From: an uncultured Rivularia sp.
GTDB lineage: Bacteria; Cyanobacteriota; Cyanobacteriia; Cyanobacteriales; Nostocaceae
Length of the DNA: 64,000 nucleotides
NCBI GenBank assembly: GCA_963665115.1
Contig: OY762007.1
Coordinates: 6,336,001-6,400,000 of the forward strand
Direction of reading: 5' to 3'
Shown here: one piece after another, positions 25,742-59,731 of the stretch
How positions within the stretch are numbered: the first letter of the stretch is position 1
Layout of the letters: each line of letters starts with the position of its first letter
Notes under the pieces: model-generated
The model's database searches: none
Seen by the model: only the letters and a program-made list of their open reading frames with translations
What the model was told of the DNA's origin: nothing
Made by a program: the position numbers and the translations under genes

Positions 25742-28700
25742 CTAACCAAACACAAAATCGTCAGCAATCAAGCTATTAGTACCAATCCCCTGCAAAATGG
25801 CTAAATCCGAACCATTTGCAGCAATCAAGGTATTATTATCTTGTTGAGTAATGCTTAAATCATCAAAGCTAATACCTAAACCAGCAATACCAAGCACATC
25901 TTCACCACTGGTAAAGTCAGTAATAATATTCACGGAATCGGGAATTTCCGCTGTTGCAATCCAGAATTGATCTGTACCTTCCCCACCAGTAATGATATTA
26001 TCACCACCGTTCGTTGCAAAGAAGCTGTCATTACCTTCACCACCAGTAATTCTATCTCCGGTTCCCATTATCAAAGTATCGTCACCGCTACTTGCATAAA
26101 TTCTATTCCTACCTTTACTGTTGATGGAAGCATCAACAACATCGCTTTCGTCACCACCAAAAATCAGTTGACTGCTACCGCTAACTTCAATAATATCTGC
26201 TTCAAGGCTACCAAAAATCGGTTCTGGTATTGCTTCTATTAATGAATCTACAATAGTAAAATTACCCGTTTGAGCATCAGTTTCAACTTCATATCCTTCC
26301 CCTACTTCAACAGTAAAAGTTGCGATTTCTTCTCCTTCAATTTCCCCATCATTTAAAATAGGTAAACTTATTTGAGCATCTTGCTCGGTGATAGTAAAAT
26401 TAAACTCGCTGTAAGCGCTAGTATTACCAACTGTAGGAATCACACCTTCTGTAAATGCAGGTATGGTATCAACTACTAATTCTTCATTAGTCCGACCGTT
26501 AGCTAAATCAACATAGGTAAAATCATCTTCTGATGAATACCACATATTAGCATTAAAACCGAGAGTTCCTCCCCTATGACCTACAACTGTTCCTAAATCG
26601 GGAGTTTCAAAGCTCATCATTCCTAAGCCATAGGAAAATCCTCTACCAGTATCTACCAAGGTAAACATTTGAGCTAAACTTTCTTGTGAAAGTAACTCTT
26701 CTGCGTACAAAGCTCGCGCAAATTGGCTTAAATCCTGGGTATTAGAAACTATCGCACCGCTAGTCCATGTCCAAGAAGGATTAGCAATAGAAACATCATC
26801 CAAAATACCATCGAAGTCAAAATCTAAATAACCGCTAACATAACCTCCTGGGATTTCTTCTTCTACTGCAAAAAATGTATTTTCTAAATTCAGAGGTTCA
26901 AGAATTTGTGACCTAATTTCGGCAGCTATATTATTATCGCTAGCTGCTTCGATAATCATTCCTGCCAAAATATAATTGGTATTGGAATATTGCCAAGATT
27001 CTCCCGGTGCAAAAAACGGTTCTACACCATCAATTAATTCTACTATTTGTTCCGGTTGCCAATCGTTTAAAAATATAGTGGGATTAAAAGCTGCTTGCTG
27101 TAATAAAATGCCATCGTATTCTGCAATGCCACTGGTATGATTTAGTAGTTGCCTAACAGTAATCTCGTCGGCTGAAGGAATATTTGCTGTTACTTGTTGC
27201 GGTAGCCAATCGGTAATAGTATCTTCAAGAGTCAGCTTTCCTGCTTCTGCTAATTTTAAGACGGTAGTTGCAGTAAATGTTTTAGTAATACTACCAATTT
27301 GAAAACGGTCATCGGGTTGTAAGAGTGTATTGTTTTCTATATTGGCTACTCCCGCAGCTTCTGACCAATTTCCCAGAGGAGAAGTAATCGCTATAGTTGC
27401 TCCCGGTACTTGTGCTGTAACTTTTTGGGCTAAAGCGGTTTCTAATTTCGACTGAATACCATTATTAAGATTAATTTCACCGCCTTGTGTTTGAATTGAA
27501 CTGAGATTAAATTCCGATAAGTTAGGAGTACTAACAGTTAGAGTTGTTCCTATTTCTGGCGGTGGTTCGCTGAGGCTAAAGTTAAGTAAGGAAACTGTTT
27601 CTTGGGATTCAATTAATAATTCGGGTTCGGTACTCAAACTAACTATTGGTTCGATTTCAGAATTTTCATTTCCTGAATCCACAATAGTAAAAGTACCGCT
27701 ATTCGCATCAGGATTTACTCCATATCCTTCCCCTACTTCAACAGTAAAAGTTGCGATTTCTTCTCCTTCAATTTCCCCATCATTTAAAATAGGTAAACTT
27801 ATTTGAGCATCTTGCTCGGTGATAGTAAAATTAAAATTATCGTCGCTAATTCCGACTCTAAAAGGTGGTAAAAGGTCGCGAACTAAATTATCATCAGAAA
27901 ATCCATTAATTAATTCAATATAAGTAAAATCATCTTCGGGAGAATACCACATATTTGAACGGTACCCCAAAGTTTGACCGCGATGAATGTACCAGAAACG
28001 ATTGGGGGATTCGATGGTTCCGACTCCTAAACCATAGGAAGAATAATTATTATTATCAATCGCAGGAGTAGTATCGAGCATTTGCTCTAAAGTTTCGGGT
28101 TCGAGCAAATCTCCTTTAAACAAACTACGAGCAAAAGTATCCAAATCTTCCGTATTAGAAACCATTGCACCAGTAGCCCAAGTCCAAGATAGATTCGCTG
28201 AGGTAATATTATCTAAAGTCCCGTCTTGGTTGAAATCCCAGTAACCGCTAACGTAACCTCCAGGTATTTCTTCCTCTTCAGCGAAAAAGGTATTTTCTAA
28301 ATTTAACGGTTCAATAATCCGTGTCTTAATTTCGTCAGCAATATTATTATCCGTCGCTGCTTCTACTATTAATCCCGCTAAAATAAAGTTGGTATTAGAA
28401 TACTGCCAAGATTCCCCTGGTGCAAATAAAGGTTCTACACCATCAATAAAATCAATTAATTCTTCTGGTTGCCAATCTGTTAAAAATACACCAGGATTAG
28501 TGGCAGCTTGATTAAAAAGTACATCAACATAATCAGCAACACCGCTTTTATGTTGTAATAACTGCTCTAAAGTAATTTCTTCAGCAGACGGAATATCAGC
28601 AGTTATACTTTCAGGTAGCCAAGTAGTAAGAGTATCATCTAAATTTAACTTACCTTCCTCAACCAACTGCATTACAGTTGTAGCCACAAAAGTTTTTGTA

Positions 28701-29068
28701 ATGCTGCCAATTTGAAAACGGTCATCTGGTTGTAAAGGTGTATTATTTTCTAGATTAGCAACACCACTCGCACCAAACCAGCTTCCGAAAGGAGAAACAA
28801 TTGCCACAGCAGCACCCGGTACATCTTCTACACGAGTTCCATCCAAAGCATCGTTTAATTGTTGCTGTAATTCCGGCTCTAAAGTAATTTCACCCCCTTC
28901 AACTTGAGTTTTAGTTAAATTAAATTCAGCTAAATTCGGTGCATTAATATTTAATACGATACCCGATTCGGTCGGTGGTTCGCTGAGGTTAAAGTTAAGT
29001 TTAGAAACCGTTTCCTCTGCTTCGATTAATAATTCTGGTTCGGTGGTAAAGGTGATTTTTGGGTTCAT
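25742..29068 (-). CDS. Putative secreted protein with two serine beta-lactamase/D-peptidase (S12-like) domains and RTX-like tail, 1108 aa
   Basis: Twice GSITK (SxxK), YSN (YxN) and HRG; shared C-terminal tail with GGEGND / GGEGTD repeats. Confidence 0.88.
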   Translation of the reverse strand: MNPKITFTTEPELLIEAEETVSKLNFNLSEPPTESGIVLNINAPNLAEFNLTKTQVEGGEITLEPELQQQLNDALDGTRVEDVPGAAVAIVSPFGSWFGASGVANLENNTPLQPDDRFQIGSITKTFVATTVMQLVEEGKLNLDDTLTTWLPESITADIPSAEEITLEQLLQHKSGVADYVDVLFNQAATNPGVFLTDWQPEELIDFIDGVEPLFAPGESWQYSNTNFILAGLIVEAATDNNIADEIKTRIIEPLNLENTFFAEEEEIPGGYVSGYWDFNQDGTLDNITSANLSWTWATGAMVSNTEDLDTFARSLFKGDLLEPETLEQMLDTTPAIDNNNYSSYGLGVGTIESPNRFWYIHRGQTLGYRSNMWYSPEDDFTYIELINGFSDDNLVRDLLPPFRVGISDDNFNFTITEQDAQISLPILNDGEIEGEEIATFTVEVGEGYGVNPDANSGTFTIVDSGNENSEIEPIVSLSTEPELLIESQETVSLLNFSLSEPPPEIGTTLTVSTPNLSEFNLSSIQTQGGEINLNNGIQSKLETALAQKVTAQVPGATIAITSPLGNWSEAAGVANIENNTLLQPDDRFQIGSITKTFTATTVLKLAEAGKLTLEDTITDWLPQQVTANIPSADEITVRQLLNHTSGIAEYDGILLQQAAFNPTIFLNDWQPEQIVELIDGVEPFFAPGESWQYSNTNYILAGMIIEAASDNNIAAEIRSQILEPLNLENTFFAVEEEIPGGYVSGYLDFDFDGILDDVSIANPSWTWTSGAIVSNTQDLSQFARALYAEELLSQESLAQMFTLVDTGRGFSYGLGMMSFETPDLGTVVGHRGGTLGFNANMWYSSEDDFTYVDLANGRTNEELVVDTIPAFTEGVIPTVGNTSAYSEFNFTITEQDAQISLPILNDGEIEGEEIATFTVEVGEGYEVETDAQTGNFTIVDSLIEAIPEPIFGSLEADIIEVSGSSQLIFGGDESDVVDASINSKGRNRIYASSGDDTLIMGTGDRITGGEGNDSFFATNGGDNIITGGEGTDQFWIATAEIPDSVNIITDFTSGEDVLGIAGLGISFDDLSITQQDNNTLIAANGSDLAILQGIGTNSLIADDFVFG

Positions 29069-29131
29069 GATTTAAAAAGGGAATTGGGCATGGGGGATGA
29101 GATATAAACCTTTAACCTCTAACCAATATTT

Positions 29132-29305
29132 AGTAGGGTGCGTGAAGACCTTGACAAATTACTGTTTTCTATGAATGAATTAATATTGTCTTCACGCACC
29201 TTGTTTTGATAGATAACGAATAACTGGTAATCAAAGGCAATGGTGCGTGACGCTACAATAAATTATCACTACGTACAAAATTTCTCGAAGCGTCACACAC
29301 CCTAC
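29132..29305. repeat. REPIN-like element (GTAGGGTGCGT family)
   Basis: gtagggtgcgtgaagac...gtcttcacgcacc ... ggtgcgtgacgct...agcgtcacacaccctac; truncated copy at ~45728-45760. Confidence 0.7.
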
Positions 29306-29312
29306 AAATTAA

Positions 29313-32300
29313 TTAACCAAACGCAAAATTATCTACAATCAAGCTATCCGCACCAATACCTTGTAATATAACTAACTCGGAATTATTTGCAGCAATCAAA
29401 GTATTATCTTCCTGTTGACTAATACTTAAATCATCAAAGCCAATACCCAAGCCAGCGATACCAAGGACATCTTCACCGCTGGCAAAGTCGGTAATAATAT
29501 TCGCCGCTCCAGGAATTTCAGCAGTTGCAATCCAGAATTGGTCTGCACCTTCTCCACCTGTAATGATGTTATCACCACCGCTGATGGCAAAGAATTTATC
29601 ATCACCTGCACCACCGACTATTCTATCTGACATTCCCAGTATTACGGTATCATTACCGCTACCAGCGTAAATACGATTTCCGCCTTCGCTACTGATAGAA
29701 GCATCAATTAAATCATCGGAATTACCAGCGAAAATAATCCCGTTACTACCTTCTACTTCAACTATATCTGCGTCAATTGTTCCTAATTCAGGTAAAGGTG
29801 TTTCTGGTTCGGGAGGATTGGGATTGAACATATCTCCTAAACTAAATTCAACTTGGTAAACGTCGGGTGCAAAACGTTCGCCAAATGTCCAACCGCTACC
29901 GCTTCCGAGGACGAAGGGGTCGTAGAAGTCGTTACCTAAGTTACTAATTCCTGCGTAGTATGTACCGGCTTCTGGTGCGGTAAATTTTAGGTAAGGGGTC
30001 GCCTTCTGCTTGAAATATTTCATCTGCTGCTGCACCTTGGTTATTGATGGCTAATTCGTTACCTTCTGCATCAAAGATACGCAGTACTGAATCAAGAGTC
30101 GAACCAAGTCCCGTATCACCAATACCGTTGGCATCGATATCAATTGTAATGGTTTGTCCGCCGTTTAAGTCGAAGGAATAAAAATCAACGTCTTCTGATG
30201 CATCTACTGTGTCTTCTCCCCCGAAGCGTTGAGCAATTTCTCCTTCGATTGTGACGGAAAGATTATCGAAAGCTGGATTTAAACCTAAGTCTACCGCATT
30301 CGGAATAGTATCGTTATTGTTAGTACGTCCGTCGTTATCGGTGGGTGCTTCTGGAAATCCTTCCGGTAATCCTCCTTGTTCTTCTGGTTCGATAACTACG
30401 GAATCGGGGCTTTCACCATCAAATTCTGTAAATGTCTCTACTATAGGAGCATCTGGGTTAACTTCTACTGATAAATTATACTCACCTGCACCTATACCAA
30501 ATCTAGGTAAAGTTACACCATCTCCCGAAGCTGGCACGTTGGGGTCGTAATTTTCATTAAATGCTTGGGATACGCCGATGTAGTAAGTTCCGGCATCTTC
30601 GACGGTATAATCGATGTAGGCATCTCGACCAGATTCTAACGATTCTCCGGGTGCTGAACCTTCAGCGTTATAAACTAATTCTTCCCCTGCTGCATTAAAT
30701 AATCGTAAATCCGCACCCGCTTCTAGAGTTTCACCTGCGGAATTTTCAAAGGGAATTGAATCAATATCAAATGTAACTCTATCCCCTGCTGATAATTCTA
30801 AGGAGTAAATATCAACGTCTTCGGTTAAATCGGTTCTTTGAGATAATTCGGAATCGAAGAAGTTACCGGAGATTTCCCCGTTGATGGAAACGACTTCGGT
30901 TTCGGGGGTTATATTTGTAGCTGTTGCGGTGGCTATTGTATCGTTAAATGATTCTTCGGTAACAATTACCGGAGCATCGCTAACGGTGTCGTAAATATCA
31001 AAACTGGATTGATTGGCTTCAGAATCTAAACTAATTTGATAACCAGCATCTTCTCCAGGTTCAACTAAGGTAAAGACAGCGGTTTCTAAACCTTCTATCA
31101 TACCATCATTACTTACCGGAAGATTAACTGTAGCAGTTTGTTCGGTAACTAAAATATTAACTGTACCATCATCACCAATACTGACGATATTACCACCAGT
31201 TACATCCAATTCTGAAGCATCGAAATCGCTAAGATTTTCCGAATTAATTGCGACGGTAATTCCTTCTTCTGGTGGTGGAGCGCTGAGGTTTAAGGTAAAT
31301 ACAGCCGTAGTTGCCGATGATTCGATTAAAATTTCGGATTCGGTTGTTAAGCTAACCTGAATTTGAGCATCTGCATCATCTGCGATACTAAAGTTAACTG
31401 CTGCATCGCTGTCAATGTTGTAACCAACCTGCTGTTGTAAGGTAAAAGTAAATTCTTCAATTCCTTCCCCAGTCTCGGAATCTAAATTATCATTTCTCGG
31501 AGTCAAAGTAATACTAGCTTCCGGCTCGGTAATCTTGAAAAAGAAACCGCTACTATCACCATTCGTAACCGGGAAAACTCCACCTTCAATATCAGCGTTT
31601 AATATGTCAAACTCACCCAAACCAAATCGGACATCGCTATCAACTAAAACTATTACACCTTCGGGGGGAATTTCTCCATCTACATTAAAGCTGATGGTAG
31701 TTTCGGTTTCTCCTTCAATCAAAGAGTTTTCGCTAATGCTTATTCCTACTGTTGGTGTTGATTCCGAGGTAGGAACTTGGTCTAAAGTATCATAAATTGT
31801 CACCGCAGAAGCAGCATTAGTATCGCTAACCGTATAACTTTCACTTGGTTCTACAAATAAGTTAAAATCTTGTACCCCTTCTCCCAAACCAACATTAGAA
31901 AAGTTAACGATCGCATTGGGATTGAGTAACTTTACCTGAAAACCCGTAGCGACTCCCGCATCATTATAAATTGCGCTGACAAATTCTCCACCGAAAACAA
32001 ATGGAGCAAAAGCAGGTTCGTCTACTAATTCTGCAATATTAGCTAAATCGCTATTGATATTAACGATTAAACCATCTTCCGGTACCGGAATATTAGAATT
32101 TATCGTCACGCTTAAAATAGGTGTTCCTGATTCGATAGAATCCACCAAATTAGGAGTAATTAAATTATCGTCAGCGTCAAATGTTCCTGCTAAAGTATCT
32201 ATGGAAATAACTGGTAATTCATTCATCGGTGGTGCTGGATTATTCGCATCTTCTACATCAGTGATGCTGATAGTAATTGCACCATTCTCGGAATCTACTT

Positions 32301-33169
32301 GATAACCTTCCCCATCAATTACCTCAAAAGTAAAAGATTCTGCTGCTTCATCCTCGTTTGCACCTTCATCAAATACTGGTAGAGTAATCGTAGCCGTAGG
32401 TTCGGTAACGGTGACGAATATTCCACTATCCCCTTCAGCAGGAGCGGGAATTCCGCTGATTCCCGTTAATTCAATATTGAAAACATCAAATTCACTTAAT
32501 GAGCGGCGTTGATTTTCAACGCTATTAGTGTCATTAATTAAAACTCTAATCCCTTCTGCTGGAATATCTCCATCAACAGTAAGAGTTAAAGTAATCGAAT
32601 CTCCCTCAACTACATCAGTTTTATCAGCAGTTAAACCGACAATTGCATTCGTAGGTTTTGGTGTCGGTTCGGGATTGGGTTCGGGATTTGGTTCTGGATT
32701 TGGTTCCGGTTTCCGTAGATGCGCTCGAAACATTAAAAGCTAAGGTATAATCGCTCGTTGCTCCTATTTGTTGTAAAGCAAAAGTATATTCACCGCTTGG
32801 TAAAGCACCTTCAAAACCAATTGCATTTAGACCATTACCAACTTCATCTAAAATATCAGTACCAACTTGTCTGGGATTTCCGAATAAGGTATAGCCTAAA
32901 ATATTTTCTCGAATCGCAGAATCATCAAGGGGTTCGGTAAAAGTATTTCCCTCTTGTACCCCAATAAAAGCCACATCCGACGGATTATAAGATTCCAACA
33001 CCACGGAATCTAACACAGAACCTTCGGGAACACTTACCGTCAAATATTCTTGGTCGCTATCTCCCGTACTAGCTGTAACTTTATTAGTTCCTTCGGACAA
33101 AGAAAGCTCTAACGGGTTTGTGGGATTATTAGAAATATCCCCATCAATCCTTTCATCGTAATTACTCAT
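29313..33169 (-). CDS. Acidic modular RTX-tailed protein (unknown N-terminal domain, Calx-beta-like repeats, two PPC-like domains), ~1284 aa after two +1 frameshifts
   Basis: ORFs 32624..33169, 29944..32733 and 29313..30035 join on removing one T at 32710-32712 and one G at 29995-29998 (restores DPYLKFTAP). EDVD.Y...LRLF...G.YY.G.S PPC-like motifs. Confidence 0.82.
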
Positions 33170-33364
33170 AATTAGGTTATAATTTTCAAAACAATATTTA
33201 ATGCGCTCAACCGCATGGTCAAGGCGATCGCAAATTTAAAGCAGTTAATATTTACTAGAAAATAAAAGTATAAAATTTATCCTCATAAATATTTTGAGGT
33301 TAATTGAACTTTCAATCCTTCAAATTCCCTTGCTGCTTATATTGACATTCTTTTAAGTAGGTTA

Positions 33365-33479
33365 TTGCAAATAATTTTCAGTGTGTTGTTTACGTAAATT
33401 CTACTATAAATTTTCGTGAGTGAAAGTAGTAGTTTTATGAAGTTTTCGTTAAGCAGTAGCGGTTGTGCAAAATTTGCAT
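33365..33479 (-). promoter_or_regulatory. Composite promoter: Fur-like box, TTACGTAAATTCTACTATAAA element, distal AAGTAG..TGAAGTTTTCG element and GTGCAAAATTTGCAT palindrome
   Basis: ttgcaaataattttcag 33365-33381; ttacgtaaattctactataaa 33390-33410; tgaagttttcg 33438-33448; palindrome 33465-33479. Confidence 0.7.
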
Positions 33480-33540
33480 TTGGTGGTTGAACTGTTAGAG
33501 TAACGCAAACCCGACCATTTAATTACCAATAATACATAAA

Positions 33541-33708
33541 TGTAGAGACGTAGCACTGCTACGTCTCCCCGGATTTTGCGATTTATATTAATAATTTGGT
33601 TAATCGTAGGTGAATGGTATAATCCGTTCGGTTTTGTGCGGTGGTTGTTGGAGACGGTTTCGTTTTGTGCGGTGATTGATATGAGACGTAGCAGTGCTAC
33701 GTCTCTAC
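33541..33708. repeat. REPIN-like inverted REP pair, duplicated at 38968-39107
   Basis: tgtagagacgtagcactgctacgtctccccgg ... gagacgtagcagtgctacgtctctacaccagttattta; spacer is homologous to the 38968 copy. Confidence 0.75.
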
Positions 33709-33717
33709 ACCAGTTAT

Positions 33718-36700
33718 TTATCCAAACGCAAAATTATCTGCAATTAAGCTATCAGTAGCAATTCCTTGCAAAATTGCTAATTCAGAATTATTTGCAGCAA
33801 TTAAGGTGTTATCATCCTGTTGAGAAATACTCAAATCATCAAAGCCGATTCCTAAGCCAGCGATACCGAGGACATCTTCACCGCTGGTAAAATCGGTTAT
33901 AACATTAGGTGCTCCAGGAATTTCGGCTGTTGCAATCCAGAATTGGTCTGCACCTGCGCCACCAGTAATGATATTATCACCACCACTCATAGCGAAGAAT
34001 TTATCAGCACCATCTCCACCAACAAGGCGATCGCCATTCCCTAAAATCAAAGTATCGTCACCGCTACCTGCATAAATCCGGTTTCCACCTTCGCTACCGA
34101 TAGAAGCGTCAATCAAATCATCGGAACTACCAGCGAAAGTAAACCCATTACTACCTTCGACTTCGATAACATCTCCCTCAAGAGAACCAAACACAGGTGG
34201 TACGGGTTCTGGTTCTGGTGCGGAAGTTAATTTAAAGCTGATGTCGTATTCACCAATATTAATGCCAAAGTCGGGGAAGATACGACCGCTACCTGTACCC
34301 GCTTCCAAGGGGTCGTAGGTGCGATTACCTAATTGCGCGACACCCGCATAATAAGTTCCGGCTTCCTCAGCAGTAAACTCTAAATAAGCATCACGGTTAG
34401 CGTTGAAGATTTCATCTGGTGCTGGTGCGCCGGTAACTAGGTCTAATTCGTTACCTTCTGCATCAAATAGACGCAGTTCGGAATCCAACCTTTGTGTTTC
34501 TTCAATTCCTTCAATTTCGTAGGGTATTGAATCTACATCAACGCTGACTGTATCTCCAGCTTGTAATTCAAAGCTGTACATATCAACGTCTTCGGAAGCA
34601 TCGACTAAGTTACGAGTTGCGCGAGCGGAATCGATTTCACCGCTAACGGTTAAGGTGGGACTGTCTGCGCTTAAACCTGTGATAATTGCGTCAGTAATTG
34701 TATCATTACCTTCGCTAAGGTCGGGGCCTGATTCACCTGGTTCTTCTGGTTCTTCGGGTTCTTCTGGAAATGCTACAGAGTCTGGATTATCGGAAATGCT
34801 GTAGGTGACGGAAGCGTTATCCGAAGCGATGCTATAACCGGGACTTTCAATTAAGGAAAGCGTAAATTCTTCAATTCCTTCTAAAGCGTCTTCTGCATCA
34901 ATTTCCGGATTGGTGGTTTCGTCAAAAACATTTAAGGTAATACTAGCTCCGTCTTCAAAAGCTCGGAAGTATAAACCGGAGGAGGAAAAGTTAGTGGTGG
35001 GGAAAACTCCTCCACTCACTTCTGCTTCAAAAATATTAAACTCACCAACTGCTGCCCTTTCATCTGTATTAGCGTAAATTAATACGCCGTCTTCAGGAAT
35101 TTCACCATCAATATTGAAACTGAAGGTAACACCTGTTGCTTCGGATTCAATTAGGTTAGTTTCGCTGATATTAATTCCAACGGTGGGTTCGGAAGTCGGA
35201 GCGGGAACATCGGCTAAGGTATCGTATACGGTGACGGAAGTTGTTGCTGCACTTTCGTTAACGACGTAACCAGTTGATGATTCTAAAGCAAAGTTTAGTA
35301 CTTCTGGCCCATCAGTTTCCGCTTCTTCTAGGTCTTCAATATCGATACTAATTAAAGCATTCGGACCAGTTGCTAAGAAACGAATACCGCTAGGATTACC
35401 GCTATCATCGTATACCGCTCCGATAACTTCTCCACCTAGAGTAAAAGGCGATCGCCCTAATCCCCCAAAGTATTCAGTAAGGTCAAAGTCGCTGTTGATA
35501 ACAACTTCCACACCATCTTCAGGAATTTCTCCTTCTACCTTCAAGGCTAAAGATAAGAGAGAAGCACCTCTTTGTTCTCCGAGAAATTCAACTAAATTGG
35601 GAGCTAAAACGGTATCGCGTAATTCGCTGCGTTCTCCGTTAAAGGTACCATATACCGATTGCAGAGAAACTGTTGGCCCGCTGCCATCTCCGGGAGTAAT
35701 TTCTGTTGCTGAAGGAGTATTATCTGTATTCAGACTGAGATTAAGGGTGTATTCCCCACTGCTGCGTCCGGTACCGCTAGCGGGTTCTGTAGGTTCGTAT
35801 GGGTTATTTTCACCTGGATCGAAATTCTCAAATTCACCATTCGGGTAACTGCTAATTCCCGCATAATAAGTACCATCAGTTTCCGCTGTATACTCAATGT
35901 AGGAATCTCGGAAAGCCAAGAAAGTTTCACCTGGTGCCCCGTCATCATCGCTTATAGCTAGTTGATTTCCTTCTGCATCAAATAAACGCAGTGCTGTATC
36001 TAAATCGGAAGGGTTTTCCAAATTAGTTTGACTAGCATCTGTATCCAGACGAACGGTGTCTCCGGCTTTTAAATCAAAGGAGTAAAGGTCAACATCTTCG
36101 GTAAAATCAACATACAACCTTCCATCTTCAAGTTCGTAGCGGTTGCTGTTGTTATAGTCAATCTCTCCAGTGATGGAAACTTGAGAATTAGCTTGATTTA
36201 AGCCTGACGCTTGAGCTAGTTCGAGAGTGTCGTTAGGTTCGCTAACTTCTTCGGTAGCGGGAGGAATTTGTTCTACGGTATCCACTAAATTGAAAGTACC
36301 GCTGTTAGCTTCTGGATTTACTTGATAACCGTCACCAGATTGTAAAGTAAAGACAGCAGTTTCTAATCCTTCATCTGCACCGTCATTTGCAACAGGTAAA
36401 TTAATAGTTGCCGATTGTTCGGTAATTGTAAACTGCAATTGGGGAGGAGAACTTTCGAGAATTTCAATATCACCAGAAATTCCAGTGGTTTCAATTCCTG
36501 TAGCGTCAAATTCTTCTAAACCATCAGCAGTGACTCTAACAGTTATCCCTTCTTCAGGTGGTGGCGAACTGAGACTAAAATTATGAACCCCAACAGTTGT
36601 TTCTGCTTCAACTAAAGTTTGTGGTTCAATAGTATAGCTAACTTGAATTTGAGAATCGGGATTATCCGCAATAGTTACACTTACTTCACCAGCATCGTCA

Positions 36701-37567: not shown

Positions 37568-37753
37568 GATGTTTGTTTGTGATTTTTAATTGACGTGGTA
37601 AATGTGGAGACGCGATATATCGCGTCTCTACAAGATTGTGGTTATTCTCAGTCAAAAGAAGCGATTATGTCGGGTTAGTAATTTTTGACTTGTGAAAAGT
37701 ACATTGCCCTCATTTATCCAGATGCACTACTAATAGAATAAATTTTTATTTTG

Positions 37754-37838
37754 TTGAGAATATATTTCATTAAACTTCTTACGTAAATCATACTATACAT
37801 TTGAGATTGTCTAGTATTTTTTTATAAACTTTTATGTG
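37754..37838 (-). promoter_or_regulatory. Composite promoter copy (Fur-like box plus TTACGTAAAT element)
   Basis: ttgagaatatatttcat 37754-37770; ttacgtaaatcatactata 37779-37797; degenerate distal element. Confidence 0.62.
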
Positions 37839-38074
37839 CGTACTGCTTTTTTAGAGTCGAATCATTAAAACAATTACACCTGTAATGGGGATTGGAGATG
37901 GGGAGAGGGGGGAAGAGAGCAGTGAGCAGAGAAGGCAGGGGAGAAAAGGCTAAGAAAAATGAAATTGCTTCCTCCGCTCCTAACTCATAACTCCTAACTA
38001 CTTCCTACTCCCTATTGCCGGAAATATGATTCAATATATCCCAGGTTTAATAAATAATTGCAGCAAAATCCTTT

Positions 38075-38938: not shown

Positions 38939-38967
38939 CGATTAATTTAGGTAATACACATAACTAA

Positions 38968-50376: not shown

Positions 50377-53300
50377 TTAAGCAAACGCAAAATTATCCGT
50401 AATCAAACTATCAGCACCAATTCCTTGCAATATCGCTAAATCTGAGCCATTCGCAGCAATCAAAGAGTTATCTTCCTGCTGGGTGATGCTCAAATCATCA
50501 AAGCCGATTCCTAAACCAGCAATACCAAGCACATCTTCACCGCTGGTAAAGTCAGTAATAATATTTGCTGCTTCCGGAGTTTCGGCTGTAGCAATCCAGA
50601 ATTGATCGGCACCGGCTCCACCAGTAATGATATTATCACCACCCGAAAGTGCAAAGAATTTATCGTCACCTTCACCACCAATCAGGCGATCGCCATTCCC
50701 CAAAATCAAAGTATCATCACCGCTACCAGCATAGATACGGTTTCCACCTTCACTACCAATAGAAGCGTCAATCAAATCATCGGAATCACCACCGAAAACA
50801 ATTTGACTGCTACCTTCTACTTCGATAATATCTCCTTCTAAGGAACCGAATATTGGTTCGGTAGTGGGTTTAGAGCCACCACTATCGGATGCTAATTCGA
50901 CGTTGAGTTCATATTCGCCGAAAAGAATGCCGATTTCGGCGAATATCCAACCGCTACCAACGCTTAGATTATTTTCTACCAAGGGGTCATAATCGGTATT
51001 TCCAAGCTGACTGACACCGACGTAGTAAGTACCCGCTTCCGAGGCTGTAAATTCAAGATAGGGGTCACGGCTAAATTCTTCGTTGGGTGCTGCACCGTTA
51101 TTGACGCTAGCTAATTCGTTACCCGAAGCATCGAATAAGCGCAGTTCCGAATCTAAACGTTGTTCTACTCCTTCAAATTTAGCTGACTCAAAGGGAATAG
51201 AATCAACATCAAGCTTAATCGTATCTCCTGCTTCCAAAGTAAAACTGTAGAAGTCAACATCTTCTGAAGCCTCTACGATTTCACCAACACTAGAATCTAC
51301 TCTTGCGGATTCACCTGGTTCGCGACTACTAAGAGCAGCGGTAAATTTTGCAGTGGGATTAAAGGGATTGATATTGAGATCGATCGCTTCAGAAATCGTA
51401 TCATTAGAATCAAATTCTTCAGTTGGAGCAGGAACTTGTTCTGGAATATCTACCACCGTAATTGTGGCTTCGGGTGCATCGGGGGTCGATTAGGTAATTT
51501 GTAGTTTCAACCAAAGAGAAAGTAGTTGTTTCTACTCCCTCATCTTCACCATCTGATATTGGTGGTAGCTCGACGATAGCAGTAGCATCGGTAATATTAA
51601 GGGAGAAACCCGTGTCTGTAACTTCTGTTATTTCTCCTCCCGTTACGGTAAATGCTTCGGTATCAAACTTCGATAAATCGTCAGCACTGACTGTTACGTC
51701 AACACCTGATTCTGTGGGAAATGCAGTCAGATTAAAGGTAAGCTCGCCTGCTGTATTATCTGACTCAACCGCAACAGTTTCGCTTCTTAAGCTAACTTCT
51801 AAAACAGAATCTGGATTATCAGCAATAGTGAAATTGACGAACGAAGCATTCTCATCAATCGTATACAGAGATCCTTCTTGAAGCGCAAGGTTAAAGCTTT
51901 GTAAACCTTCTTCAAAGGGGTCTTCAAAAGCAGATAAGCTAATAGATGCTTCTTGTTCAGTAATTTTGAAAAAGAAACCGTTAAATTCTCCATTAGGAGT
52001 TGGATAAACACCTCCGCTAACTTCAGCATTGAGAATATCAAATTGAGGTAGGATACCTACTGCATCACCCTTGACAAAAACCAGCACACCTTCAGAGGGC
52101 GGAGCTTCATTAAGGCTAAAGTTGAGCGTTGTTCGATCTCCTTCGGATTCAACTAGTTCGGTTTCGGTAATTGTTAGGCTGATTTCAGGAATAACGTTAG
52201 GTTCTGGAGCTTGCTCTTCACTGTCATAGAATGTGGGTGTGACTTGATTTTCGGTTTCAGATACCCCGTAGCCTTCACCGCCTTCTAAGAAGAACGTTAC
52301 CTCTTCTGGACCATCAGTTTCAGGTTCTAATAGCTGACCCCAATAAGGAGTTCTTGCATTCAATCCGACAAAAGTAACCGGCTCAAATATTCTAAGTTGA
52401 AAACCCGTTTCTCGTCCAGTGTTATCGGTTAGAACATCTACTAATTCTGCTCCAGGCGTAAAAGGAGGAAGAATTAGAGAGCGTACTGAAAAGTAGTCTC
52501 TTAGATAGCTGTCGCTATTTACATTAACTAAAATACCTTCTTCAGGAATTTCTCCTTCAGTTTCTAATACCAGGTTTAAAAGTGAACCCTCTAGGTCAAG
52601 TCCTTCGATTAAATTGTTTGAAAGTACGGTGTCTAAACCAAGCTCCCCAGAAATAACGCGGGGATCTGAAAACTGAGCATAAGTAGCACTGTTAAAGTTC
52701 AAAGAAACCGTTGGCTCACCATCTTGAGCTAAATCGATTGTTTGGGGAAGTGTGTTATTACTACGATTTTGCTGTTCCACTAAAAACGCTCGCTCTTCTG
52801 GATTAAGAGCAATTGTTAGTTCATACTCACCAATATTAAGAGAATCTTCGGAAGCATTAAACCCATCTCCACTAGCTGGAATGAAGGGGTTGTATGTCAG
52901 ACCACCCCAAGTATCGGGCGCACCAAATCTTTGAGGCGCGCCGTTGGAAAAAGAGCTAAGACCTAGATAGTAAGTTCCATCTTCTGGTGCTTCAAATTCA
53001 AGGTATGAATCTCCACTCGATCTGAAAATTTCACCTATCCCTGGACTGAGACCTCTTCCAGTAAGTTCGTTACCGTCTGCGTCAAATATGCGTTGTATGC
53101 CTACAATGCTATTAACCGTATCGAATTCAACGTTTGGAAAAGCTGCTCCATCTGTAGCACGAGAATCGATGTCAGAAGAAATAACGTCTCCTGCTTTAAG
53201 GTCAAATCTGTAGAGGTTTACGTTTTCTACCGCATCAACATAAGTAAAGCTGCCATCTTCATTTTGGTAGCGATTGCCAATATCAAAATCAAAGGTTTCA

Positions 53301-54319
53301 ACAATCGTAACTACTGAATTATCAGCACTGAGTCCAATATCGCTAGCTAAAGGAATAATATCGTTAGGCTCGCTGATATTATCAGGAACTTCTTCGGCAG
53401 TATCGGTAATAGTGAACTCACCACTACTAAAATCATCATTCACCTCATACCCATCACCCGCTTCCAAACTAAAGCTAGCCGTTTCTAACCCCTCAGCTTC
53501 CCCATCAGCAGCAACAGGAAGATTAATTAAAGTCGTAAAATCCGTGAGTCGAATATCAAAACCATCCTCTCGGACGTTGACAATTTCCCCACCATCACTA
53601 ACTTCAATCGCATCTAAACGGAAGCTACTCAAGTTGGGTGCATCAACTCCAACAACTATTCCACCTTCAGGTATTGTTGCTCCAGTGACATTAAAAACAT
53701 GAGCAGAAACCGTTCCGTCTTCCTCTACCAAATAATCCGGTCCCGTATTTAAACTAACTAACGGTAAACCAGTTTCTGGAGTTGGTTCCGGTGTCGGATT
53801 CGGTTCCCGTGTCTGCTCGGTAAGCTGGCTTTCAAGGTCAGCAAATAATACACTACTTGTTGCTGCATTACTATCAATAGTGTAATCGCTGAGATTGCCC
53901 ACATCCCCCAAATCTGCTGCATCCACCTGCTCGCTCGTCTTCAACTGAAACACCGCTTCTACCAAACCATCAAAAGTTTCTGGTAAAAACGTATCGGGTT
54001 CAGAATTATCAAACACATTAATCGTAAAGCTCGCATTCGTAGCTCCTGGATCAATAGTGAGGAAAAAGCCAGAATTATCAAAATTAGTTCCAAGCAACGA
54101 GGGGTTGATATTTTCGACGATTGGATTAACCCCAAACCCCGGTAAATTCAAACGGTTGACAATTTGTTCTACATCGCTATCTACATAAACTTTCAAACCA
54201 CCTTCGGGAGCTGGTTCATCTAAGGAGAAGTTTACAGTTAATGCATTTCCCTTCTCTTCAACGAGCGCATTCTGTTCACCCGAGTAGTTCGTAGTTGTAG
54301 AAAGGCTAACTTGTACCAT
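50377..54319 (-). CDS. Acidic modular RTX-tailed protein (Calx-beta-like repeats plus two PPC-like domains), ~1313 aa after one +1 frameshift
   Basis: ORFs 51419..54319 and 50377..51456 join on removing one G at 51481-51485 (IDPDAPEATITVVDIP). Confidence 0.84.
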
Positions 54320-54490: not shown

Positions 54491-57400
54491 TTAAGCGAAA
54501 GCAAAATTATCAGCAACCAAACTATCCGCGCCAATACCTTGCAAAATTGCTAATTCAGAATTATTTGCAGCAATCAAAGTATTATCATCTTGTTGAGAAA
54601 TACTCAAATCATCAAAACCGATACCCAAACCAGCAATACCTAAAACATCTTCACCACTAGCAAAGTCAGTAATAATATTTGCTGCTTCCGGAGTTTCGGC
54701 TGTAGCAATCCAGAATTGATCGGCACCGGCTCCACCAGTAATGATATTATCACCACCCGAAAGTGCAAAGAATTTATCACCACCTTCACCACCAATCAGG
54801 CGATCGCCATTCCCCAAAATCAAAGTATCATCACCGCTACCTGCGTAAATCCGGTTGCTTCCCGTGCTACCAATAGAAGCATCAATCAAATCGCTTTCGT
54901 CACCACCGAAAACAATTTGACTGCTGCCTAACACTTCGATAACGTCTGCTTCGATTGTTCCGAAGGTAGGGGAAGGTGTTGCTGCAACTTGACTATCATC
55001 AATGCTGAAAGCAACTTGTTGAGCGTTGGAATCAACTTCGTAAATTTCTCCATCTATTAAGCTGAAACTAAATTCTTCTAAACCTTCGTTTGCACCGTCG
55101 TCAAAAGTGGTTAAGGTAAGACTCGCATTACTGTCGGTAATCGTCGCTAAGAAACTACTTCCTCCCGAATCTCCCACTGTGGGAAAACCATCGATACCAG
55201 TTGTTTGAATTGCAAAATTTCCATCTTCGTCAAAGATGCTAAATTCACCTAGAATACCACGGGTTTCGCTATCAACGAGAACGGTTAAACCATCTTCAGG
55301 AATTTCTCCATCAACATTAAAGTTGACTGTAAATTGTTCTCCTTCACTTAGTTCGGTTTCGCTGAAAGAAAGTCCAACTGTGGGACCAATTCCAGCACCA
55401 CCATTACCGTCGATTAAGGTAACTCCATCGCTGTTAGTATCGGAAACAGCGTAATTTGAATCTATCGAACCATCATTTTCTATGACAGTAAAGCCAAAAT
55501 CTCGATCTTCTTCTTGAATAACATCGTTGAGGATGGGGAAAACAATAGAACCCTCATTTTCTGAAATAATTAATTCAGTAGTACTGGTTTCGGGGTCGAA
55601 AAATTCACCGATTGCAATATTGTTAAAGGTAACATCAATCTCACCATCTACTTGATCTGTTAAATCTAAATCCCCACTAATAAGAAATGAAAGTCCGTCT
55701 TCGGGAATTTCCCCATCTACGCTAAAGTTAGCAAAAACTGTTGCTTGTTCGTCTTCTTCGGAAACTAAATCTGGTTCAATGCTGAAGCTGACTACTGGTG
55801 CTTCTCCTGTAGGTGGTGTTGGTGTAGTACCGCTTGCATCGCTAAAATTGAGAGTAACTGCACCGTTTTCGGAATCAACTTGATAAGCTTCCCCATCAAT
55901 CACCTCAAAGGTAAATGATTCTAAAGCATCATCCTCATCTATACCTTCATCAATTACGGGTACGGTAATAGTAGCGGTGGGTTCGGTGATAGTAACAAAG
56001 AAACCGCTATCTCCGTCGGCAGGTCTGGGAAACTCGCTAAGTCCTGTAGTCTCAATTTGAGCCACATCAAATTCAGTTAGCGACCTTTGTTGAGTTGCTG
56101 CACCATCGATATCGTTAACTAAAACGGTAAGTCCTTCTGCTGGAATCTCCCCATCAACGTTAAGGGTTAAAGTAATCGAATCTCCTTCAACTACGTCGCT
56201 GTTATCTACAGTTAATCCAACGGTAGGCCCCGCTGGTTGTGTTTCATCGACTACGTTTAAAGTTATGCTACCAGCGTCGGGAGCAACTTCGTATTCTTCT
56301 CCATTCACAATCGTAAAGGGAAGTTCTAAAGGTTCTTCGGCAAGAATATCGTCAAAAACTGAGGTAGTAATTGATGCTTCCGGTTCGGCAATAGTCACGA
56401 AGAAACTGCTACCACCAGCATCCCCAACTTCGGGTAATCCTGCGATTCCATCTAGTTGCAAAGTACTTAAATCGGATAAGTCAAATTGTCCTAAAGCACC
56501 GGGAACCGAACTTTGAACTAAAACCTGTACTCCATCTTCGGGAATTTCCCCATCTGCACTAAAGTTAATGGTTATTTCATCACCTTCAGTTAAATCGGTT
56601 GCACTAGCAGAAATTCCCACATTCGGGCCAATTCCGGGACCACCGTTATCATCAGTTATGGTAAATAGGGTAGAGTTTTGAGATGAATCAACTGTATATC
56701 TTTCTCCTTCCACAAGTTGGAAATCAAAAGGTTGAGTACCTTCTTCGATAATGTCGTTAATGAAGTAAAGCTTGAATGAAGCTTCAGGTTCAGACAATAA
56801 GATATTTATTCTACCAGTGTCATCAGAATCAACGATTTCAGAATTAATGAATTCTGCTTCTGGTTCGGCTGCAAACTGATTGGTAAAGTCAAAAGGAATA
56901 TCAGGATTGCCACCCGAAGTATCCAAGTTTACTATAATTCCTTCTTCGGGAAAATCTCCGGTAACTGTCCACTTCCACTCAACTAAATTATTTTCAGCTT
57001 CTTCCGATAGGGTTGCGGGGGTTGTTTCAAAGCTGACTACTGGTAGTTCTCCCGTGGGTGGTTCTGTTGGAAGTTCGGATTCCGTTGCTGCTTCAACTGT
57101 AATCTCAACGGTTGCAGGTTCGGAAAATATTTCACCGTCGTTAGTTAAATAAGTAAAGGTATCTGTTCCGGAAAATCCCTCGTTAGGAGTATAGCTAAAA
57201 GAACCATCCTCATTTAAAGACAGTTGCCCACTGTCGGGAGTATCTAAAACAGAAACAATTAATTGATTTCCCTCAGCATCAGAATCATTAGCTAATATCC
57301 CCGCATCTACATCTACACTTAATTCCTCTCCCTCAGCAGTTGTATAACTATCGCTTTGAGCAACTGGAGGTGTATTATCTGATGGTTCTGGTTCTACAGG

Positions 57401-57817
57401 AACTTCTGGTTCTTCTGGTGGTGGTTCGATTGTCGTACTTTCCGCATCTTGAAGCGTCAAACTAATAGAATTTGCACTTTCATTAACTGTATAACCTTCA
57501 CCCGGTTGGACGGTAAACGTTAAACCTTCAATTGCATCGGCAACATCATCGTCGAAAATCGGTAAACTTAAAGTTCCCGTTTGCTCGGTGAGTCGAATAC
57601 TAAAACCGGAAGTGTCATCATTCACCCCCACCAAACGTAAATTTTCAAACTCGGTTGCGAACACATCTAATTGAGCCAAAGCATTTTCGGTTTCGCTATC
57701 CACAGTGACAACCAAACCACCTTCGGGTATTGGTTCATCTGAAGTCAGCGTAATCGTTAATACAGTTCCTTCTTCTTCAACTAGAACTGTGGGATTCGCA
57801 CTTATTGAAACTGCCAT
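54491..57817 (-). CDS. Acidic modular RTX-tailed protein (AISANPT domain, cadherin-like/Big_9 repeat, Calx-beta-like repeats), 1108 aa
   Basis: Intact ORF; NTPPVAQSDSY...DGSFSYTPNEGFSGTDTFTY repeat; shared tail. Confidence 0.88.
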   Translation of the reverse strand: MAVSISANPTVLVEEEGTVLTITLTSDEPIPEGGLVVTVDSETENALAQLDVFATEFENLRLVGVNDDTSGFSIRLTEQTGTLSLPIFDDDVADAIEGLTFTVQPGEGYTVNESANSISLTLQDAESTTIEPPPEEPEVPVEPEPSDNTPPVAQSDSYTTAEGEELSVDVDAGILANDSDAEGNQLIVSVLDTPDSGQLSLNEDGSFSYTPNEGFSGTDTFTYLTNDGEIFSEPATVEITVEAATESELPTEPPTGELPVVSFETTPATLSEEAENNLVEWKWTVTGDFPEEGIIVNLDTSGGNPDIPFDFTNQFAAEPEAEFINSEIVDSDDTGRINILLSEPEASFKLYFINDIIEEGTQPFDFQLVEGERYTVDSSQNSTLFTITDDNGGPGIGPNVGISASATDLTEGDEITINFSADGEIPEDGVQVLVQSSVPGALGQFDLSDLSTLQLDGIAGLPEVGDAGGSSFFVTIAEPEASITTSVFDDILAEEPLELPFTIVNGEEYEVAPDAGSITLNVVDETQPAGPTVGLTVDNSDVVEGDSITLTLNVDGEIPAEGLTVLVNDIDGAATQQRSLTEFDVAQIETTGLSEFPRPADGDSGFFVTITEPTATITVPVIDEGIDEDDALESFTFEVIDGEAYQVDSENGAVTLNFSDASGTTPTPPTGEAPVVSFSIEPDLVSEEDEQATVFANFSVDGEIPEDGLSFLISGDLDLTDQVDGEIDVTFNNIAIGEFFDPETSTTELIISENEGSIVFPILNDVIQEEDRDFGFTVIENDGSIDSNYAVSDTNSDGVTLIDGNGGAGIGPTVGLSFSETELSEGEQFTVNFNVDGEIPEDGLTVLVDSETRGILGEFSIFDEDGNFAIQTTGIDGFPTVGDSGGSSFLATITDSNASLTLTTFDDGANEGLEEFSFSLIDGEIYEVDSNAQQVAFSIDDSQVAATPSPTFGTIEADVIEVLGSSQIVFGGDESDLIDASIGSTGSNRIYAGSGDDTLILGNGDRLIGGEGGDKFFALSGGDNIITGGAGADQFWIATAETPEAANIITDFASGEDVLGIAGLGIGFDDLSISQQDDNTLIAANNSELAILQGIGADSLVADNFAFA

Positions 57818-58015: not shown

Positions 58016-58112
58016 TTTTACACGTTAATTTTGTTTTGCAGCGGAAATCGGAACTCGAATTAACGCACCTTCAGAGCCGGAAGAACTTTACTGATTAATC
58101 TTGAACTAATTA

Positions 58113-58228
58113 TTGCGAATTAATCTCAAGATTATCACTTACGTAAATTCTATGATAAATTCTGCTTCACGAAAGTAACTTTTCATGAAGATTTCGTAAA
58201 GTCAACTGATAAAGTAAGCAATTTGCAA
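58113..58228 (-). promoter_or_regulatory. Composite promoter copy
   Basis: ttgcgaattaatctcaa 58113-58129; ttacgtaaattctatgataaa 58139-58159; aagtaa...tgaagatttcg to 58196; degenerate palindrome gtaagcaatttgcaa 58214-58228. Confidence 0.72.
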
Positions 58229-58318: not shown

Positions 58319-58361
58319 GTAGTAAGGGCTTAAGCCCTTTGAGGACTAAAGTCCTTACTAC
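58319..58361. repeat. GTAG-type REP doublet / possible terminator downstream of the 58375 gene
   Basis: gtagtaagggcttaagccctt tg aggactaaagtccttactac. Confidence 0.55.
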
Positions 58362-58374
58362 GAACTTTGATTAA

Positions 58375-59731
58375 TTAACCGAAAGCAAAGTTATCTCCGC
58401 TTAAACTATCGGCTGCGATATCTGTCAATATCGCTAAATCTGTACCGCTAGCAGCAATCAACGCATTATCTCCCTGCTGAGTGATGCTGACATCCTCGAA
58501 GCCAATACCTAATCCAGCAATACCAAGGACATCTTCGCCACTGGCAAAGTCTTTTATCGTATTGATCCCGTCGGGTAGTTCTGCGGTTGCAATCCAGAAT
58601 TGGTCTGCACCTGCACCACCATGTATGAGGTTGTCCCCACCGCTCATGGCAAAGAACTTGTCGTCACCCGCACCACCGGAGTAATGGTCATCTTCTCCAA
58701 GTATGAAAGTATCGTCACCGCTTCCACCATAGATCCAGTTTCCACCTTCGCTACCAATAGAAGCATCAATCAAGTCATCTGAACCACCACCAAAGACTAG
58801 CTGTGCGCTACCTTCGACTTCAATAACGTCCATTTCCGTGGTTCCGAATTCTGTTGTGAATTCGGTATCAGTTTCACCTTCTCCCGGTTCGGGTAATTCC
58901 GGTTCTGGCTCAGGTTCTGGTTCGGGTTCTGGTTCGGGTTCTGGTTCCGGCTCCGGCTCAGGTTCTGGCTCAGGTTCTGGTTCCGGCTCGGGTTCGGGTT
59001 CTGGCTCAGGTTCGGGTTCTGGTTCTGGTTCTGGCTCAGGTTCGGGTTCTGGTTCTGGCTCAGGTTCTGGTTCTGGCTCAGGTTCGGGTTCTGGTTCTGG
59101 CTCAGGTTCGGGTTCTGGCTCAGGTTCGGGTTCTGGCTCAGGTTCGGGTTCTGGCTCAGGTTCGGGTTCTGGTTCGGGTTCGGGTTCTGGCTCAGGTTCG
59201 GGTTCTGGTTCTGGTTCTGGCTCAGGTTCGGGTTCGGGTTCTGGTTCTGGCTCAGGTTCGGGTTCTGGTTCTGGCTCAGGTTCGGGTTCTGGCTCAGGTT
59301 CTGGTTCTGGCTCAGGTTCTGGTTCTGGCTCAGGTTCGGGTTCTGGTTCTGCACCATCCGCGTCTTGGAGTGATAAAGTCACAGAACCAGCACTTCCATC
59401 AACTTCATATCCTTCACCAGGTACAACATTAAAAGTTAAATCTTGTGCATCATCATCTTGGTCGTCAAAAATCGGTACGGTTATAGTTGCTGGCGATGCG
59501 TTAATTAGAAAATCAAAACCACTGGTATCATCGTTAACGGTTGTAAACCGCCCATTTACAAATTGGGCAGCAAATACGTCTAATTGACCCCAGAGCATTT
59601 TCAGTGGGACTGTCAATAGTAACAGTTAAACCACCTTCCGGTATTGGTTCGCTTGAACTCAGTGTAAGTACTAGCGCAGTCCCTTCTTCTTCCACAAGAA
59701 CTGTGGGATTTGCGCTGATGCTAATTGCCAT
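58375..59731 (-). CDS. RTX-tailed protein: AISANPT domain, (Glu-Pro)~75 spacer, tail; ~451 aa after one +1 frameshift
   Basis: ORFs 59534..59731 and 58375..59616 join on removing one C at 59588-59591 ([10 protein letters not shown], as in paralogues). Confidence 0.83.
58899..59350 (-). repeat. Coding hexanucleotide tandem repeat GARCCN (Glu-Pro)~75
   Basis: ~450 bp of ggttct/ggttcg/ggctca/ggttcc units; shorter copies at 20926-21051 and 21348-21479. Confidence 0.95.

Follow-up and report, generated by a model that had tools for sequence, protein, structure and literature searches.

A nine-gene array of acidic, RTX-tailed Ig-repeat proteins embedded in a siderophore-type gene cluster of an uncultured Rivularia: a candidate extracellular arm of cyanobacterial iron capture

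Large type I secretion substrates with immunoglobulin (Ig)-like domains are known from the repeats-in-toxin (RTX) adhesins of the LapA, SiiE and MpIBP type, and for RTX adhesins it is established that calcium folds and stiffens the Ig modules. HasA is known as a secreted hemophore. Siderophore gene clusters are usually read as synthetases and transporters; co-inherited giant exoproteins suggest a protein layer of iron capture. Here, we analysed a stretch of 64,000 nucleotides (the window) from an uncultured Rivularia sp. (GCA_963665115.1, contig OY762007.1, positions 6,336,001-6,400,000, forward strand), in which nine minus-strand genes at window positions 25742-59731 share a common C-terminal 160-aa RTX-type tail. 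They belong to a family of acidic Ig-repeat proteins that is quite probably a secreted, iron-locus-linked accessory of some kind. A more specific reading, for which we regard the odds as evenly balanced, is that this family, co-inherited with siderophore and iron-uptake loci, provides iron-starvation-induced, type I-secreted and calcium-stiffened adhesin-like rods that hold filaments, siderophore and hydrolases at iron-bearing surfaces.

The bodies of the nine proteins are built from two modules, A (about 125 aa) and B (about 165 aa), which iterative profiles detect in varying order. The predicted fold of module A is an Ig-like sandwich (predicted local distance difference test, pLDDT, 95); its nearest structure is the Calx-beta domain 3ead (Z 9.7, root-mean-square deviation (rmsd) 3.5, 106 residues aligned), with a small margin over the next, unrelated Ig folds at Z 8.7, and the Calx-beta profile PF03160 scored at best 17.9 bits here and 23.1 bits in a homologue, thus not reaching its cut-off of 27. 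Neighbours in the Atlas carry Calx-beta and LapA domains. The predicted fold of module B (pLDDT 84) resembles the collagen-binding domain of ColG (5iku; Z 12.7, rmsd 1.9, 107 aligned), and the module matches PF04151 (PPC; 27-74 bits, cut-off 25.9) and NF038127 (DVUA0089; 38-40 bits, cut-off 29). Conservation over 315 A and 47 B modules falls on Gly, Pro and on acidic and aromatic residues, with hardly any His, Cys or Met, a composition that fits calcium or carboxylate binding better than a soft-metal site. The longer body open reading frames (ORFs) contain 16-31% Asp plus Glu and 1-5% Lys plus Arg. No N-terminus has a signal-peptide-like hydrophobic stretch within the first 45 residues, as judged by hydropathy only (maximal 12-residue Kyte-Doolittle mean of at most 1.5, compared to 2.4 in the TonB receptor). 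The proteins are about 451-1316 aa long, counted across frameshift breaks, and their tails are pairwise 62.5-87.5% identical (mean 77%). A sequence-only reading of this DNA had described nine co-oriented acidic genes without signal peptide and with a conserved tail, and this description holds. It had also seen C-terminal GGxGxD repeats: each tail has just two to three GGxGxD-like motifs, and the PF00353 score of 16-21 bits stays below the cut-off of 23.

This architecture shares with the LapA, SiiE and MpIBP type the lack of a signal peptide, the tandem Ig-like beta-sandwiches, the acidity and the C-terminal Gly/Asp repeats. The array proteins differ in that they are shorter, have few RTX repeats and interspersed PPC modules, are linked to a siderophore locus, and show no retention module: neither Pfam nor NCBIfam gave a match to a LapA-type N-terminal retention module, for which no dedicated profile search was made, and most genes start directly with module A. 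A pore-forming RTX toxin of the HlyA type was rejected, as NF033943 matches the tail alone with 19-27 bits (cut-off 1000) and the bodies are acidic beta modules. HasA and the Anabaena protein ZepA (PMC10957091) are likewise exoproteins that go with starvation for a metal and with TonB-dependent uptake, but they are small single-ligand proteins of unrelated folds.

A relative in a genetic model organism is All2655 of Anabaena PCC 7120 (Q8YTQ8, 3262 aa), which is encoded in the NRPS/PKS (NRPS, non-ribosomal peptide synthetase; PKS, polyketide synthase) siderophore region; by mass and peptide position it is the same protein as P0175 (BAB74354.1, 3262 aa), which consists of 21 A and 2 B modules. 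All2655 shares with the array both modules, Big_9 and an RTX C-terminus (PF00353, 98.7 bits), and all 11 array pieces that matched are 33-54% identical to it over the aligned blocks. A second member (P0221, 1417 aa) is encoded on the same chromosome. PCC 7120 thus has one or two giant genes in place of the nine mid-sized genes found here, and All2655 has another tail subtype and no enzyme cargo. In the accessible parts of the sources cited here and below, All2655 is catalogued merely as "unknown/no similarity". In ammonium medium, the exoproteome of PCC 7120 contained 10 unique peptides of All2655 (PMC4390845), and a preprint counts it among the abundant exoproteins (bioRxiv 10.64898/2026.06.08.730779), which supports the earlier claim of export. 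Its gene co-varies with all2647-all2652 in a sigma-factor study (PMC4390870), and the nearby all2641-all2649 are FurA-bound siderophore genes (PMC4005646, PMC6562677). Deletion evidence for an iron-chelating product in PCC 7120 is cited in PMC6562677, where the product of the cyanobacterial cluster is described as structurally undefined.

Further published data come from Nodularia spumigena, in which a 34-gene cluster, likened to those of PCC 7120 and Agrobacterium, is upregulated together with isiA under methylphosphonate (PMC5955973). Two of its genes, BMF81_00519 and BMF81_00520, rose by log2 1.86 (P 5.6e-5) and 1.75 (P 1.3e-4), respectively, with 0.41-0.45 for the flanking genes (PMC5955973 suppl. 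5), and within the cluster rows listed the counts are highest for BMF81_00519 (PMC5955973). We infer that the two genes are orthologous to the family because in G700, a genome of the same genus, two module-A ORFs (1434 and 1067 aa) follow each other in the same order between neighbours of equal lengths. The high counts would suit a carrier role, in which the proteins, either soluble or held in the sheath, bind the ferric siderophore with their PPC-type B modules and, like a hemophore, pass it to the TonB receptor, thus privatising a public good. Moreover, module B is a beta-sandwich of the ligand-binding type with many invariant acidic and aromatic residues, and in G490 a family gene lies between MFS (major facilitator superfamily) and TonB receptor/FecB genes with no synthetase within the fetched 40 kb. 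We still regard carriers as unlikely, since no metal-type ligand set is conserved, many members lack module B (including both G700 genes and the very gene in G490), and the family is found with chemically different clusters.

The array sits within one divergent cluster of about 140 kb that encodes a fatty acyl-AMP ligase (FAAL), PKS and NRPS; the sequence-only reading had already called the locus a metallophore-type NRPS/PKS cluster. The left arm (1-25654, minus strand) encodes an NRPS, a PKS and an NRPS with a cyclisation module and extends beyond the window with further NRPS, a CmlA-reductase fusion, a methyltransferase, an aminotransferase, a heme-peroxygenase-like pair, a tyrosinase and DevBCA. 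On the other side of the array follow an MFS transporter gene conserved with the cluster (60898-62214, minus strand) and the gene of a TonB-dependent siderophore receptor (62426-64000, minus strand; TIGR01783 above cut-off), which starts beyond the window and is divergent from the right arm. The latter comprises a FAAL-acyl-CoA dehydrogenase, three PKS, a luciferase-like monooxygenase (LLM), two NRPS and two ABC transporters, and, as read from the sequences, it ends with an epimerisation-type NRPS whose matching NRPS opens the left arm. Two separate clusters on either side of the array can be ruled out: in G059, G312 and G678 the orthologues of the two arms lie together in a single cluster (best matches 42-76% identical).

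FbnL/M are markers for Dmaq siderophores (PMC12971057). The host locus combines the orthologous FAAL-PKS-LLM-NRPS-reductase set with an FbnL/M-like pair and a TonB receptor, in the gene order of the Nodularia table, and a small gene of the left arm has an orthologue that matches the SfmD peroxygenase (E 2e-10), an enzyme type that serves as a Dmaq marker (PMC12971057). Judged by gene set and Nodularia gene order, the host cluster is orthologous to the siderophore cluster of Anabaena PCC 7120, and its predicted product would be a lipid-tailed siderophore of the catechol type. With the Dmaq clusters for fabrubactin (Agrobacterium) and anachelin (Anabaena cylindrica) it shares FAAL/PKS/NRPS, luciferase-like monooxygenase, terminal reductase, aminotransferase, methyltransferase, tyrosinase and SfmD-like peroxygenase, a likeness that for fabrubactin is drawn from descriptions of the cluster. 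In the accessible parts of these reports, an exoprotein array is not described for either cluster. A cyanochelin cluster as the host is not supported, as the gene set indicates the Dmaq type; the term RTX is absent from the accessible parts of two cyanochelin preprints.

The distribution of the family was studied in 401 cyanobacterial genomes sampled at the phylum level, in a separate order-level set of 401, and in 11 Nodularia genomes; a scan with a single protein gave 7 loci. Module A rather than the tail marks the family: at the phylum level the tail is present in 51 of the 401 genomes (E<=1e-20) and module A in 10 (E<=1e-18). The tail had been proposed as the signature of the system, and this has to be abandoned, as the related tails in those 51 genomes are joined by others on a phosphatase-type array at 2.62-2.64 Mb of the Rivularia genome, and tails cluster by genome (tree of 35 rows). 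This grouping would fit an interchangeable export signal that was recently duplicated or homogenised. Homologous bodies elsewhere end in other tails or in DUF4114, and DUF4114-tailed members within the cluster occur also in G678, G392 and Nodularia. In the order-level sample, module A is present in 47 genomes at E<=1e-8 and in 14, this genome included, at E<=1e-30, and the CmlA-reductase marker of the cluster in 23. All 14 strong module-A genomes, which represent seven families, have the marker, a count for which the E<=1e-30 cut-off was picked post hoc and in which related genomes are not independent. In Nodularia, module A and the marker are each present in four of the 11 genomes, and these are the identical four. 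The expectation that homologues co-locate with the orthologous NRPS/PKS cluster in other cyanobacteria was thus borne out. Of 80 module-A ORFs in the 30 genomes inspected, 48 are at most 10 kb away from a marker of the cluster or of uptake, and these come from 22 of the genomes; many of the misses lie at contig ends, and Fec-type transporters beside the G172 C22 array and the G556 gene are uncounted. Nine genomes with intermediate module-A matches lack the marker, and in six of them a diverged subfamily lies beside isiA/flavodoxin, MFS, TonB receptor, FecB, a PiuC-type dioxygenase or another FAAL/NRPS cluster. Among the 120 homologues listed, all named sources that give an organism are cyanobacterial. 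Multi-gene arrays are present also in G172, G585, G678 and G392, and elsewhere a single giant gene takes their place, with up to 4358 aa. It is likely that the array grew by tandem duplication and module shuffling, with the same modules residing in one or two giant genes in other genomes.

As to iron control, we searched for an idealised, AT-rich Fur-like palindrome, which resembles the FurA consensus quoted in PMC4788461. In the array, it is found upstream of gene 9 (60170-60188, 2 mismatches, one of four such sites genome-wide; a short ORF hides this site in the per-gene tally, so that it was taken from a separate site scan), gene 8 (58112-58130, 3 mismatches), gene 2 (33364-33382, 4 mismatches), gene 5 (45605-45623, 4 mismatches) and, weaker, gene 3 (37753-37771, 5 mismatches). 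Counting all twelve family genes with close body modules, five (genes 2, 5, 8, 9 and the copy at 6.116 Mb) have a site with at most 4 mismatches, and gene 3 and the left-arm copy have one with 5, against a background of 92 and 451 of 5230 genes, respectively. Genes 1, 4, 6 and 7 follow short gaps without a box, so that five transcription units are likely. Control genes gave a mixed picture, with 3-4 mismatches at the second TonB receptor, FecC and ExbB, 5 at the isiA operon, 6 at isiB and 7 at PiuC. Among relatives, 17 of 46 family ORFs have a site with at most 4 mismatches as compared to 20 of the 267 neighbours without a label and 19 of the 71 with a reference label. The array genes may be under Fur control, and the iron control claimed earlier gains indirect support from the boxes and from the co-induction with isiA in Nodularia. 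The gene 2 box is part of a shared promoter element of about 60-80 bp, in which a conserved octamer lies 9-11 bp before the box (window 33364-33442 and 45605-45684; genome 6316054 and 6115268). This element has four strict matches genome-wide, every one ahead of a family gene, and it possibly includes a site for a second regulator.

Export would proceed by the type I route. HlyB-HlyD(-PPIase, peptidyl-prolyl isomerase) genes are part of the cluster at six loci (G059, G482, G678, G699, L161, L162). Orthologues of the in-cluster exporter of G059 (52-59% identical) lie at 2.66 Mb in the Rivularia genome and are likely the nearest in sequence to it, and secretion in this organism may therefore run through an unlinked HlyB/HlyD. 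The region around these genes (genome C1:2624390-2664760) holds another exoprotein array, with phosphatase-type bodies and related tails or DUF4114-like ends and without A/B modules, beside HlyB/HlyD/PPIase.

Based on these observations, the following sequence of events can be envisaged. Under low iron, the array genes would be derepressed along with the synthetases, and the unfolded chains would exit via the type I exporter. Calcium would then fold and stiffen the Ig modules. The rods would stay in the sheath or biofilm, where their acidic surfaces and PPC modules may bind polysaccharide or iron-oxide surfaces, and they would keep the amphiphilic siderophore and the hydrolases close to the receptor. 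Calcium binding, rod shape, adhesion and the siderophore chemistry are what we infer here. Tentatively, and with less confidence than in the rod model as such, the array may be described as a dedicated extracellular protein arm of cyanobacterial siderophore loci, i.e. a modular family of type I-secreted Ig/PPC scaffolds that would anchor the amphiphilic siderophore, together with its processing hydrolases, at the sheath and at iron minerals and let the producer retain what it dissolves, with a nine-gene combinatorial toolkit with interchangeable export tails in this mat-type organism. The parts are already known (RTX-tailed Ig-repeat exoproteins, the siderophore cluster, a catalogued unknown protein); what appears new is their link and the nine-gene shuffled expansion. 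The view of the array as an undescribed component therefore stands insofar as no paper in our literature search links the family to siderophore clusters (Jeanjean 2008, the fabrubactin paper and bioRxiv supplements fell outside this search and may mention the genes), but All2655 itself had been catalogued. Such a protein layer has a bearing on the access of mat and filament formers to particulate iron and on the ways in which they curb siderophore theft. It also offers a role that can be tested for All2655, an abundant and long-unassigned exoprotein in a genetic model, and module A may mark cyanobacterial siderophore loci.

Several observations weigh against the rod model. On the protein side, no membrane anchor or LapG-type retention was seen in the array proteins, no type I secretion genes are present in the cluster of this genome, and the literature searched contains no binding, adhesion or mutant data on the family. 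The exoproteome in which All2655 was found came from ordinary ammonium medium and not from iron removal, and the supplements of two further exoproteome papers (PMC10957091, PMC10936207) do not contain all2655. On the regulatory side, the idealised box failed to pick up isiB and PiuC in this genome, and promoters that arose by duplication do not count as independent. Upon furA depletion all2655 went down 2.6-fold (reads per kilobase per million, RPKM, 1.79 to 0.68) and alr2679/alr2680 went up (PMC4788461), with low counts for all2655 and no occurrence of the word "replicate" in the accessible text. The Nodularia induction was obtained from growth on methylphosphonate with three against two libraries. 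Finally, nine marker-positive genomes are without strong module A, so that a Dmaq-type cluster can do without it: in five the CmlA-like gene stands alone, the synthetase layout of G206 and G601 is a different one, and in the fragmented assemblies of G128 and G624 module A was not found. Unlinked copies exist in G059 (C1, 2.32 Mb), G678 (C1, 4.84 Mb), G468, G559 and a weak subfamily (G552, G098, G557), and a seven-ORF array on G585 C20 is bounded on one side by the contig end and on the other by 41 kb that hold no marker.

Such unlinked copies and arrays would be expected if the proteins served generally as adhesins in biofilms or aggregation, hitch-hiked on the same mobile, low-iron-induced island and were functionally unlinked to the siderophore. 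The surrounding gene order, which is shuffled from genome to genome, a related strain (sequencing run X4) that is apparently without gene 2, and the failure of furA depletion to raise all2655 point in the same direction. The exact co-presence in the Nodularia genomes speaks against hitch-hiking, as do the location of the family next to siderophore loci of different kinds and next to uptake cassettes alone, the family genes that lie inside operons between biosynthetic genes, and the Fur-like boxes that are found on unlinked copies too (G059 2.32 Mb, G678 4.84 Mb, G202 C142). We therefore consider this explanation improbable and retain the rod model.

The nine genes, all on the minus strand, differ in the arrangement of their bodies, and each ends in the RTX-type tail. 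Gene 1 (25742-29068, 1108 aa) has two serine-hydrolase domains (PF00144), each inserted in a module A and each with SxxK and YxN motifs. Gene 2 (29313-33169, about 1284 aa, two frameshifts) has an unnamed N-terminal domain followed by A-A-A-A-B-B. Gene 3 (33718-37567, about 1282 aa, one frameshift) reads A-A-A-B-A-A-B, and gene 4 (39116-42478, 1120 aa) A-B-A-A-A-B. Gene 5 (42665-45416, about 916 aa, one frameshift) consists of A, a Glu/Gly-rich linker, a histidine-phosphatase-fold domain (PF00300 and NF004841 matches, RH motif present) and A-A. Genes 6 (46156-50106, 1316 aa) and 7 (50377-54319, about 1313 aa, one frameshift) both read A-A-B-A-A-A-B; the body of gene 7 is 83% identical to the copy at 6.116 Mb. 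Gene 8 (54491-57817, 1108 aa) has A, Big_9 and five A modules, and gene 9 (58375-59731, about 451 aa, one frameshift near the start) A and a long Pro-Glu repeat. The earlier description of the bodies as shuffled modules with different cargo thus holds, but just two of the nine bodies (genes 1 and 5) contain recognisable enzymes.

These two genes raise the possibility that the repeats are spacers that show hydrolases outside the cell, with the conserved serine hydrolase processing the siderophore (e.g. by removal of the acyl tail or iron release) and the remaining array being spare scaffold. The serine hydrolase does recur with the cluster, inserted in module A in this genome, G678, G405, G392 and G585 or as a separate gene in G059 and G312, homologues carry phosphatase-fold, amidase and TIGR03118 domains, and enzymes that deacylate other siderophores are known (bioRxiv 10.64898/2026.07.24.740629). 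Yet seven of the nine array genes and All2655 have no recognisable enzyme, and the cluster stretch of G700 is without a serine hydrolase beside its two family genes; we give enzyme display as the principal function a low probability. The separate hydrolase genes (L068:16176-17453 in G059, L104:14861-16219 in G312; 54-77% identical) have a signal-like start and a PEP-CTERM-like end, and the serine hydrolase of gene 1 thus appears to change its export route from genome to genome. The N-terminal 150-aa domain of gene 2 (32711-33169) has no Pfam match and recurs in family proteins of G172, G585, G563, G392, G678 and G166 (53-76% identical).

The first description of the array needs some corrections. 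There are nine genes, but an opposite-strand DUF2887/DUF4351 gene outside the family (38075-38938, plus strand), which we take to be Rpn-like, interrupts them, five of the nine are split by frameshifts in this assembly (gene 2 twice; genes 3, 5, 7 and 9 once), and three more family genes lie elsewhere. Several neighbouring synthetases are likewise frameshift-split. A comparison with contigs of runs X1-X4 over window 29200-45500 resolved four of the six breaks; the gene 9 break is outside this comparison. At 29995, 32710, 36716 and 43829, the X1 and X2 contigs have one base fewer, so that these breaks are probably assembly errors; X4 sides with X1 and X2 at the two breaks that it covers, and X3 has the same reading as the window. 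The gene 7 break (51481) is ambiguous, as the comparison contig is possibly a paralogue. A graveyard of pseudogenes is thus rejected for four of the six breaks. Gene 2 is uncovered and apparently skipped in run X4.

The twelve genes with close body modules comprise the nine of the array, two more in the cluster and one beside a second NRPS/PKS cluster. A family member with a different tail, gene 10 (20544-22145, plus strand, 533 aa), has A, a Pro-Glu linker, Big_9 and a DUF4114 C-terminus; further family genes are located in the left arm (genome 6316472-6320453) and beside the second cluster (genome 6115693-6119520). This second FAAL/PKS/NRPS-reductase cluster (genome C1:6071864-6119520) also encodes a dioxygenase, an aminotransferase and an MFS transporter and is flanked by conjugation-like genes and by the family gene, which shares 83% identity with gene 7. 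Two distant module-A loci are unlinked. A distant module-A repeat protein in this genome (G000:C1:8646973-8649902) is encoded amid filamentous-haemagglutinin-like genes with no iron genes linked, a setting similar to that of the weak G552 subfamily. In G206 (L121-L124) and G601 (L127-L130), the different Dmaq-type NRPS/PKS layout with a TonB receptor has no module-A gene and is likely to specify another undescribed siderophore. Within the left arm of the host cluster, a 2OG (2-oxoglutarate)-Fe(II) oxygenase gene and a small zinc-peptidase-like gene (L002:11687-13304; PF07737 weak, below cut-off) have no counterpart in the clusters of G059, G678 and G312. The genes at 17775-18806 (DUF3102, with a Fur-like box) and 19517-20227 (glyoxalase-like) are kept with the cluster in many genomes. 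The NRPS genes at 1-12713 contain low-complexity short-tandem-repeat inserts in their adenylation domains.

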